Assembly: GCF_054482595.1 (NCBI RefSeq)
Contig: NZ_CM137008.1
Length of the DNA: 64,000 nt
Reading direction: 5' to 3' (one strand)
In this document: piece after piece, positions 4,169 through 4,823 of the stretch
Numbering within the stretch: the stretch's first letter is position 1
How the letters are laid out: each line of letters opens with the position of its first letter
Notes under the pieces: model-generated
Databases searched by the model: none
What the model was told of the DNA's origin: nothing
What the model saw: only the letters and a program-made list of their open reading frames with translations
Program-made: the position numbers and the translations under genes

Positions 4169-4435
4169 ATGGACATTAACAACAAAGCCCGCATTCATTG
4201 GGCATGCCGCCGTGGTATGCGCGAACTCGATATTTCAATCATGCCGTTTTTCGAACATGAGTACGACAGCTTAAGCGATGACGAAAAACGCATCTTTATT
4301 CGTCTGCTGGAATGTGACGATCCAGACCTGTTTAACTGGCTGATGAATCACGGTAAACCGGCCGATGCAGAACTGGAAATGATGGTCCGACTCATCCAGA
4401 CACGGAACCGGGAACGTGGTCCTGTGGCAATCTGA
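4169..4435 (+). CDS. sdhE: FAD assembly factor SdhE (antitoxin CptB)
   Basis: 88-aa [35 protein letters not shown], matches remembered SdhE/YgfY. Confidence 0.92.
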
Positions 4436-4823
4436 TTTGCGCGTCTCCTGGCGCGCGCAGTGGCTTTCCTTGCTGATTCATGGGCTGGTTGCCGCTGTTA
4501 TTTTACTCATGCCCTGGCCGCTCAGTTACACCCCGTTATGGATGGTGTTACTTTCGCTGGTGGTGTTTGATTGCGTTCGCAGCCAGCGGCGTATTAATGC
4601 TCGCCAGGGGGAAATTCGCTTGTTGATGGACGGGCGTTTGCGTTGGCAAGGGCAGGAGTGGAGCATCGTCAAAGCACCGTGGATGATTAAGAGCGGCATG
4701 ATGCTGCGTTTACGTTCTGATGGCGGTAAACGGCAACATTTATGGCTGGCAGCCGACAGCATGGACGAAGCCGAATGGCGGGATTTACGGCGGATTTTGT
4801 TGCAACAAGAGACGCAAAGATAA
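4416..4823 (+). CDS. ygfX: Inner membrane protein YgfX (toxin CptA)
   Basis: 135-aa ORF overlapping the sdhE 3' end by 20 nt; hydrophobic N-terminus; conserved pairing with sdhE. Confidence 0.88.

Follow-up and report, generated by a model that had tools for sequence, protein, structure and literature searches.

The window, by which we mean the whole 64,000-nucleotide stretch of DNA that was analysed, carries between positions 4169 and 4823 the genes sdhE and ygfX, which lie on the same strand and share 20 nucleotides read in two different frames (Table 1). A sequence-only reading had called such a pair here. Both open reading frames lie where it placed them and their Pfam and NCBIfam identities hold; the overlap is evident by direct reading and is the same in RefSeq. 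The neighbouring genes are those of K-12, namely trhA (yqfA), the divergent ygfZ, the convergent fldB, xerD and dsbC.

Table 1. Features of the sdhE-ygfX locus, in positions of the window.
Feature	Coordinates	Strand	Remarks
sdhE (ygfY/cptB)	4169..4435	+	ATG start, 88 aa, stop TGA 4433-4435
ygfX (cptA)	4416..4823	+	GTG start, 135 aa
Dual-coding sdhE/ygfX overlap	4416..4435	+	20 nt, direct reading of the sequence
Intergenic region between the divergent ygfZ and sdhE	3927..4168		Presumed location of the sdhE-ygfX promoter, judged by position
Stem-loop between the convergent ygfX and fldB	4827..4856		RNA fold, without a T-run

The locus was compared with its K-12 counterpart (also ygfY-ygfX or cptB-cptA; b2897-b2896), as the earlier reading had proposed. 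The two strains share the same proteins, relative CDS coordinates, 20-nt overlap and neighbours: SdhE of the window is identical to K-12 WP_000354046.1 and YgfX to K-12 WP_000244777.1. In RefSeq/PGAP, K-12 MG1655 and the 100%-identical strain XH990 both carry these two CDS, under the product names 'sdhE: FAD assembly factor SdhE' and 'ygfX: protein YgfX', together with their 20-nt overlap. Ten nucleotides differ from K-12 over the 901 bp of positions 4000-4900, all of them silent or intergenic, and five of the ten fall in the ygfZ/sdhE intergenic region. Outside sdhE-ygfX, between trhA and ygfZ, K-12 MG1655 has 119 bp more than the window strain; the extra sequence resembles REP/BIME elements and contains a repeated GCCTGATAAGACGCGCCAGCGTCGCATCAGGC unit (window 2870-2945 compared with L001:1252-1446). 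Literature and RefSeq already cover the pair, the 20-nt overlap and the claim of a toxin-antitoxin function, and the window does not depart from the K-12 locus.

SdhE is a small five-helix protein that promotes the covalent flavinylation of SdhA and FrdA, a function that is established and has the support of structures solved for this very protein. The first gene had been taken to encode this flavinylation factor, and profile and structure matches bear this out. Its product matches Pfam PF03937 (Sdh5) with an E value of 5e-26 (90.8 bits for a cut-off of 27) and, over residues 1-88 of 88, the NCBIfam equivalog NF008130 'FAD assembly factor SdhE' (198.4 bits for a cut-off of 120). Among solved structures it matches 1X6I/1X6J (E 8e-59, residues 1-88), as well as 6C12, which is deposited as FAD assembly factor SdhE and is its complex with SdhA, and 6B58, its complex with FrdA. 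The RGxxE motif named for the SdhE family (PMC8621075) is present as R15-G16-M-R-E19, and R15, G16 and E19 show no variation among 40 paired sequences. For exactly this sequence, promotion of the covalent attachment of FAD to SdhA and FrdA is documented in the literature (PMC5042078).

YgfX is described in the literature as a membrane protein and as an interaction partner of SdhE (PMC5042078, PMC3985639). It matches PF07254, Cpta_toxin (formerly DUF1434), with an E value of 7e-50 and 169.1 bits for a cut-off of 27.3, its residues 2-131 aligning with positions 1-132 of the 133 in the profile. An exhaustive HMMER search yielded a family of 133 cluster representatives, from which we aligned 38 full-length members, 26-57% identical to the E. 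coli protein; all 38 match PF07254. The AF2 model built from this 38-sequence family alignment has a mean pLDDT of 94.7 and a pTM of 0.77. It consists of a strand (residues 2-8), two helices (12-31 and 36-62), six strands within residues 65-112 and a last helix (118-134). The hydropathy peaks agree with the helical hairpin (residues about 12-62), so that the model and the hydropathy profile predict a pair of transmembrane helices at the N terminus and a soluble domain after them, as suits the membrane protein that had been named here. YgfX is an inner-membrane protein, and with moderate confidence we read the cytoplasmic part of the model, residues 65-134, as a PH-like domain. A Foldseek search of the PDB with the model returned nothing significant, no bPH family of Pfam was matched by the YgfX sequence, and the family profile gave only chance-level connexin matches in the PDB (E at least 0.2), which means that no solved relative is detectable by sequence. 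If the PH-like assignment is right, the N-terminal strand, which is partly encoded in the overlap, would complete the PH-like sandwich. As a crude docking test, we also ran AF2 on a species-paired alignment of SdhE and YgfX fused through a (GGGGS)6 linker. Both halves were folded, with a pTM of 0.46 and no confident docking, so that this run lends no structural support to the reported interaction; residues 86-88 of the SdhE tail lie within a low-confidence segment of this fused model.

The two genes are reported to be co-transcribed (PMC5042078, PMC3985639). Scanning of positions 3850-4950 for a consensus sigma-70 promoter found no site, and the two terminator-like matches returned for the same interval are at chance level and lie inside ygfX; they were rejected. 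The stem-loop that follows ygfX lies in the 39-nt gap before fldB and has a folding energy of -17.5 kcal/mol (z = -3.78 compared with shuffled sequences). It was not called by the terminator scan; it probably forms the transcript-end structure of the sdhE-ygfX operon. RNase III cleavage has been recorded in the cptA transcript, where it was classed under inter-molecular duplexes (PMC6212723), and this entry may reflect overlapping convergent 3' ends. No Rfam family was matched at gathering thresholds in the sdhE-ygfX locus. The sole match at these thresholds in the 64-kb window is a tRNA gene at 46182-46252.

In order to determine how widely the locus is distributed, we used positions 4000-4900 as a megablast query against 5426 complete E. 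coli genomes. The locus was found at an identity of at least 95% in 5425 of them, with a median of one copy per genome; 5425 of 5426 places are chromosomal and one is on a plasmid, while one of the 5,426 genomes gave no match. In one genome, that of E. coli FXCREC180 (NZ_CP196031.1), the match covers only 92% of the query, there are two places, and an OmpW-family gene replaces fldB under the match. This pattern suggests that the region immediately 3' of ygfX has been rearranged or has received an insertion. Beyond the species, ygfX follows directly 3' of sdhE on the same strand in the window, in 80 Enterobacteriaceae loci and in 9 distant loci, and the gene order ygfZ / sdhE-ygfX / fldB / xerD / dsbC is retained in Edwardsiella, Providencia, Mixta and Pantoea. 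The locus is therefore single-copy core genome in E. coli, and its synteny is fixed across Enterobacteriaceae, Hafniaceae, Morganellaceae and Erwiniaceae. Taken as a whole, the data are best explained by a chromosomal housekeeping operon of Escherichia coli, sdhE-ygfX, a reading that we regard as very probable.

The main competing explanation is a genuine type IV toxin-antitoxin module, in which CptA (YgfX) would inhibit the polymerisation of FtsZ and MreB and CptB (SdhE/YgfY) would counteract it. The sequence-only reading had said that the arrangement is reported as toxin-antitoxin-like. This is accurate, going by the accounts of Masuda et al. 2012 given in PMC8621075 and PMC3985639, and the label is contested. 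Toxicity of E. coli YgfX and its rescue by YgfY are attributed to Masuda et al. 2012 in the summaries of PMC8621075 and PMC8132199, a CptBA-like pair is reported to be toxic in Acinetobacter baumannii (PMC8132199), PF07254 carries the Pfam name 'Cpta_toxin', and the gene order and tight coupling of sdhE-ygfX resemble those of toxin-antitoxin operons. These points are opposed by work on two other species. In Serratia sp. ATCC 39006, where sdhE and ygfX are likewise co-transcribed (McNeil and Fineran), the Fineran laboratory detected no toxin-antitoxin phenotype, in contrast to what is reported for the E. coli pair, and the interaction of SdhE with YgfX contradicts the type IV definition (PMC3985639). 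In Shewanella oneidensis, ygfY-ygfX (SO_1339/SO_1340) has the same gene order and is co-transcribed, but the genes are 37 bp apart instead of overlapping and YgfX is 34.8% similar; there the pair failed the toxin-antitoxin tests, since the 'antitoxin' could be deleted, the double deletion did not rescue growth and co-expression did not neutralise (PMC8621075). SdhE, moreover, has a separate and structurally documented housekeeping function.

The distribution of the locus also speaks against a toxin-antitoxin module. CbeA-CbtA (YeeU-YeeV), the defining type IV system, has a toxin that is reported, like YgfX, to target FtsZ and MreB (PMC8621075, PMC3985639), but the CbtA homologues YkfI and YpjF of E. 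coli K-12 reside in cryptic prophages (PMC8621075), whereas sdhE-ygfX belongs to the core genome. Unlike mobile and patchy toxin-antitoxin loci, it is single-copy in the species and syntenic in four families of Enterobacterales; an accessory, patchy or mobile distribution, typical although not strictly defining of toxin-antitoxin loci, is not what we observed. In its genomic behaviour, sdhE-ygfX looks like a housekeeping operon and not like a typical toxin-antitoxin module, and we consider a genuine toxin-antitoxin module improbable.

We then analysed the junction of the two genes. The ygfX frame is +1 relative to sdhE, and the shared stretch encodes both the last six codons and the stop of sdhE (R-G-P-V-A-I-stop) and the beginning of YgfX (M-V-L-W-Q-S-D). 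The GTG of ygfX is embedded in Arg-Gly codons of sdhE (cGT GGt), 17 nt ahead of the sdhE stop codon. The nearest upstream stop in the ygfX frame is TGA 4380, which makes GTG 4416 the first possible start; the in-frame alternatives are TTG 4437, placed 1 nt past the sdhE stop and hence giving no overlap, and ATG 4509. To compare these candidates we searched with SdhE and kept one genome per species, which gave 80 Enterobacteriaceae loci from genera including Escherichia, Citrobacter, Salmonella, Enterobacter, Klebsiella, Kluyvera, Pluralibacter, Atlantibacter, Cedecea, Buttiauxella, Siccibacter and Franconibacter. All 80 species have the GTG and the 20-nt overlap (79 recognized by a motif script and one, L051, by eye), so that the overlap exceeds what chance or annotation practice would give. 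The conservation asserted by the earlier reading thus extends over the whole sample, and it reaches Edwardsiella, Providencia and Mixta as well.

Variability in the 80 species drops sharply at the junction. The mean non-consensus fraction is 0.009 in the overlap, compared with 0.139 in the rest of sdhE and 0.183 in the next 120 nt of ygfX, and the overlap is the least variable of the 367 sliding 20-nt windows in the 387 nt examined. The effect is most pronounced at third codon positions, whose variability falls from 0.322 outside the overlap to 0.027 inside it for sdhE, and from 0.349 to 0.002 for ygfX. This collapse of wobble-site variability is the pattern expected of dual coding, with two reading frames selected at once; purifying selection acts on the shared 20 bases in each of the two frames.

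The overlap is also found in more distant genomes. We determined by exact look-up the genomic contexts of nine distant YgfX homologues. The 20-nt overlap, with the GTG within the Arg-Gly codons of SdhE, recurs in Edwardsiella (L084), Providencia (L085), Mixta (L087) and two further loci (L086 and L091). In Pantoea (L088) the overlap measures 26 nt, the ygfX start lying two codons upstream, and in L089 it measures 14 nt, with an ATG start. In the two remaining loci the genes are separate. In L083 (829-1507) the sdhE stop TAA, which ends an 85-aa SdhE, is followed after a 1-nt gap by the ygfX GTG, preceded by the Shine-Dalgarno sequence AGGAAG; in L090 the gap is 30 nt, ygfX starts with ATG and the Shine-Dalgarno sequence is GAGGG. 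The YgfX of L083 is 59% identical and its SdhE is devoid of the RGPVAI tail; the overlap was either lost or never gained in this lineage. Comparison of these sequences indicates that the overlap is an order-level feature of Enterobacteriaceae, Hafniaceae, Morganellaceae and Erwiniaceae; the few forms that do not overlap are either derived or ancestral.

From residue 1, the 38 aligned YgfX members follow the N-terminal pattern M-V-x-W-Q-x-x-L-R-x-S, with a nearly invariant S11 and a widely conserved W4; this holds also for the non-overlapping homologues P0126 (L083) and P0251 (L090). Since non-overlapping forms still begin M-(V-L)-W, the residues encoded in the E. coli overlap belong to YgfX. 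This bears on a second alternative, namely that annotation has created the overlap, the true start of YgfX being downstream at TTG 4437 or ATG 4509 and the genes being separate. In favour of this, GTG is one of the minor start codons, its SD-like sequence is weak and close to the start, TTG 4437 is in frame in the window strain, and depositors of Providencia and Edwardsiella genomes call a shorter YgfX of 97-125 aa. However, while GTG is kept in every one of the 80 species, the codon at the position of TTG 4437 is TTG, CTG, TTA, CTC, CTT, CTA or ATA, and it is CTG or TTA even in other species of Escherichia; because it varies in this way, it cannot be a conserved start. The near freezing of ygfX wobble positions is expected only if both frames are read, and W4 persists in distant homologues, among them non-overlapping homologues beginning with M-W or M-V-L-W. 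In the AF2 fold, residues 2-8 are a strand modelled with confidence, and the Pfam profile starts at residue 2, whereas a start at ATG 4509 would remove the first transmembrane helix. GTG 4416 is accepted also because the N-terminal strand, partly encoded in the overlap, would complete the YgfX sandwich if the PH-like assignment is right. The sequence-only reading had named loss of the overlap on re-annotation of the start codons as its refutation; this objection fails, as the GTG is universal in the 80 species and TTG 4437, the sole nearby start that would avoid an overlap, is unconserved. On comparative evidence the start-codon question is settled for GTG 4416, and we judge an artefact to be very unlikely.

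A programmed frameshift at the overlap, yielding an SdhE-YgfX fusion protein, is more improbable still, for although public metagenome assemblies contain fused open reading frames of 207-217 aa with both Pfam domains, these occur as singletons or pairs, compared with clusters of 1241 and 462 normal members, the frame switch differs from one to the next (for example RERG followed directly by LWQ, after RERGPV, or earlier) and so does not mark one slippery site, and no slippery heptamer is evident in 4416-4435. Fused frames of 166-217 aa (P0002, P0003, P0005, P0008, P0009, P0010, P0013 and P0022), each with its frame switch at a different position near the overlap, come from E. coli- or Citrobacter-like contigs and are most likely due to indels or assembly errors.

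Several variants of the ygfX frame were seen in the course of these comparisons. Of the 79 loci that the script parsed, 26 (among them L012, L013, L015 and others from Citrobacter, Kluyvera and Pluralibacter) have a frame that is open for 62-86 nt into sdhE and contains an upstream ATG or TTG, which explains database YgfX entries of 152-154 aa such as P0019 and P0046. All 26 nevertheless retain the GTG where E. coli has it. For Edwardsiella and Providencia, public annotations disagree on the start, versions of 49-125 aa being found beside the 136/140-aa form; discordant calls include P0260, P0262, P0263, P0265, P0267, P0270, P0271, P0275 and P0276. Start calling for ygfX is thus inconsistent outside E. 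coli. In Kluyvera genomosp. 3 strain YDC799 (L081:2748-3170), frame 0 of ygfX ends at a stop codon following 69 aa, beyond which two other frames carry on the homology. This interrupted gene is either a pseudogene or the product of assembly indel errors.

A conserved downstream start located inside the upstream open reading frame, on the same strand, is a feature of translationally coupled pairs and is present here. In overlapping orthologues the SD-like sequence before the ygfX start is often poor or absent, as in the Providencia sequence preceding the GTG, 'aaataaaaatcGTG', while the non-overlapping L083 and L090 have the AGGAAG and GAGGG motifs mentioned above. The anti-SD pairing energy before GTG 4416 is -4.3 kcal/mol, which equals the sdhE value and is attained at 23% of random positions; it therefore speaks neither for nor against independent initiation, and such energies do not separate the candidate ygfX starts. 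We also considered an RNA structure that would sequester the start. This candidate was rejected: the fold of the junction (4376-4475) has a z score of -0.70 compared with shuffled sequences, and conservation of its local hairpin does not extend to other genera. The conserved start within the upstream frame, together with the frequent absence of an SD-like sequence in overlapping orthologues and its good quality in the two non-overlapping variants, suggests that translation of ygfX is coupled to that of sdhE by termination-reinitiation. Ribosomes finishing sdhE would re-initiate at the nearby GTG with the help of, at best, a weak Shine-Dalgarno sequence, and such coupling would tie the output of YgfX to that of SdhE. 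The growth inhibition seen on over-expression of ygfX may be a membrane-protein dosage effect and not the action of a dedicated toxin.

Within the housekeeping operon, we tentatively propose a role for YgfX, which is possible although we do not consider it probable. YgfX would be a non-toxin, membrane-anchored split PH-like receptor that tethers or meters SdhE, and the frozen 20-nt junction would be a coupling device fixing the YgfX:SdhE ratio. The sandwich of the receptor would be completed by an N-terminal strand separated from the remaining strands by the transmembrane hairpin. SdhE would be held at the site of SdhA and FrdA assembly on the inner membrane, and its disordered tail (P-V-A-I) would be conserved mainly for encoding the N-terminal strand of YgfX.

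To the pair as it was known, the present analysis adds a high-confidence fold model of YgfX, which suggests a PH-like cytoplasmic domain. The core, syntenic and single-copy nature of sdhE-ygfX weighs against the toxin-antitoxin label that is still propagated by Pfam and by toxin-antitoxin surveys.
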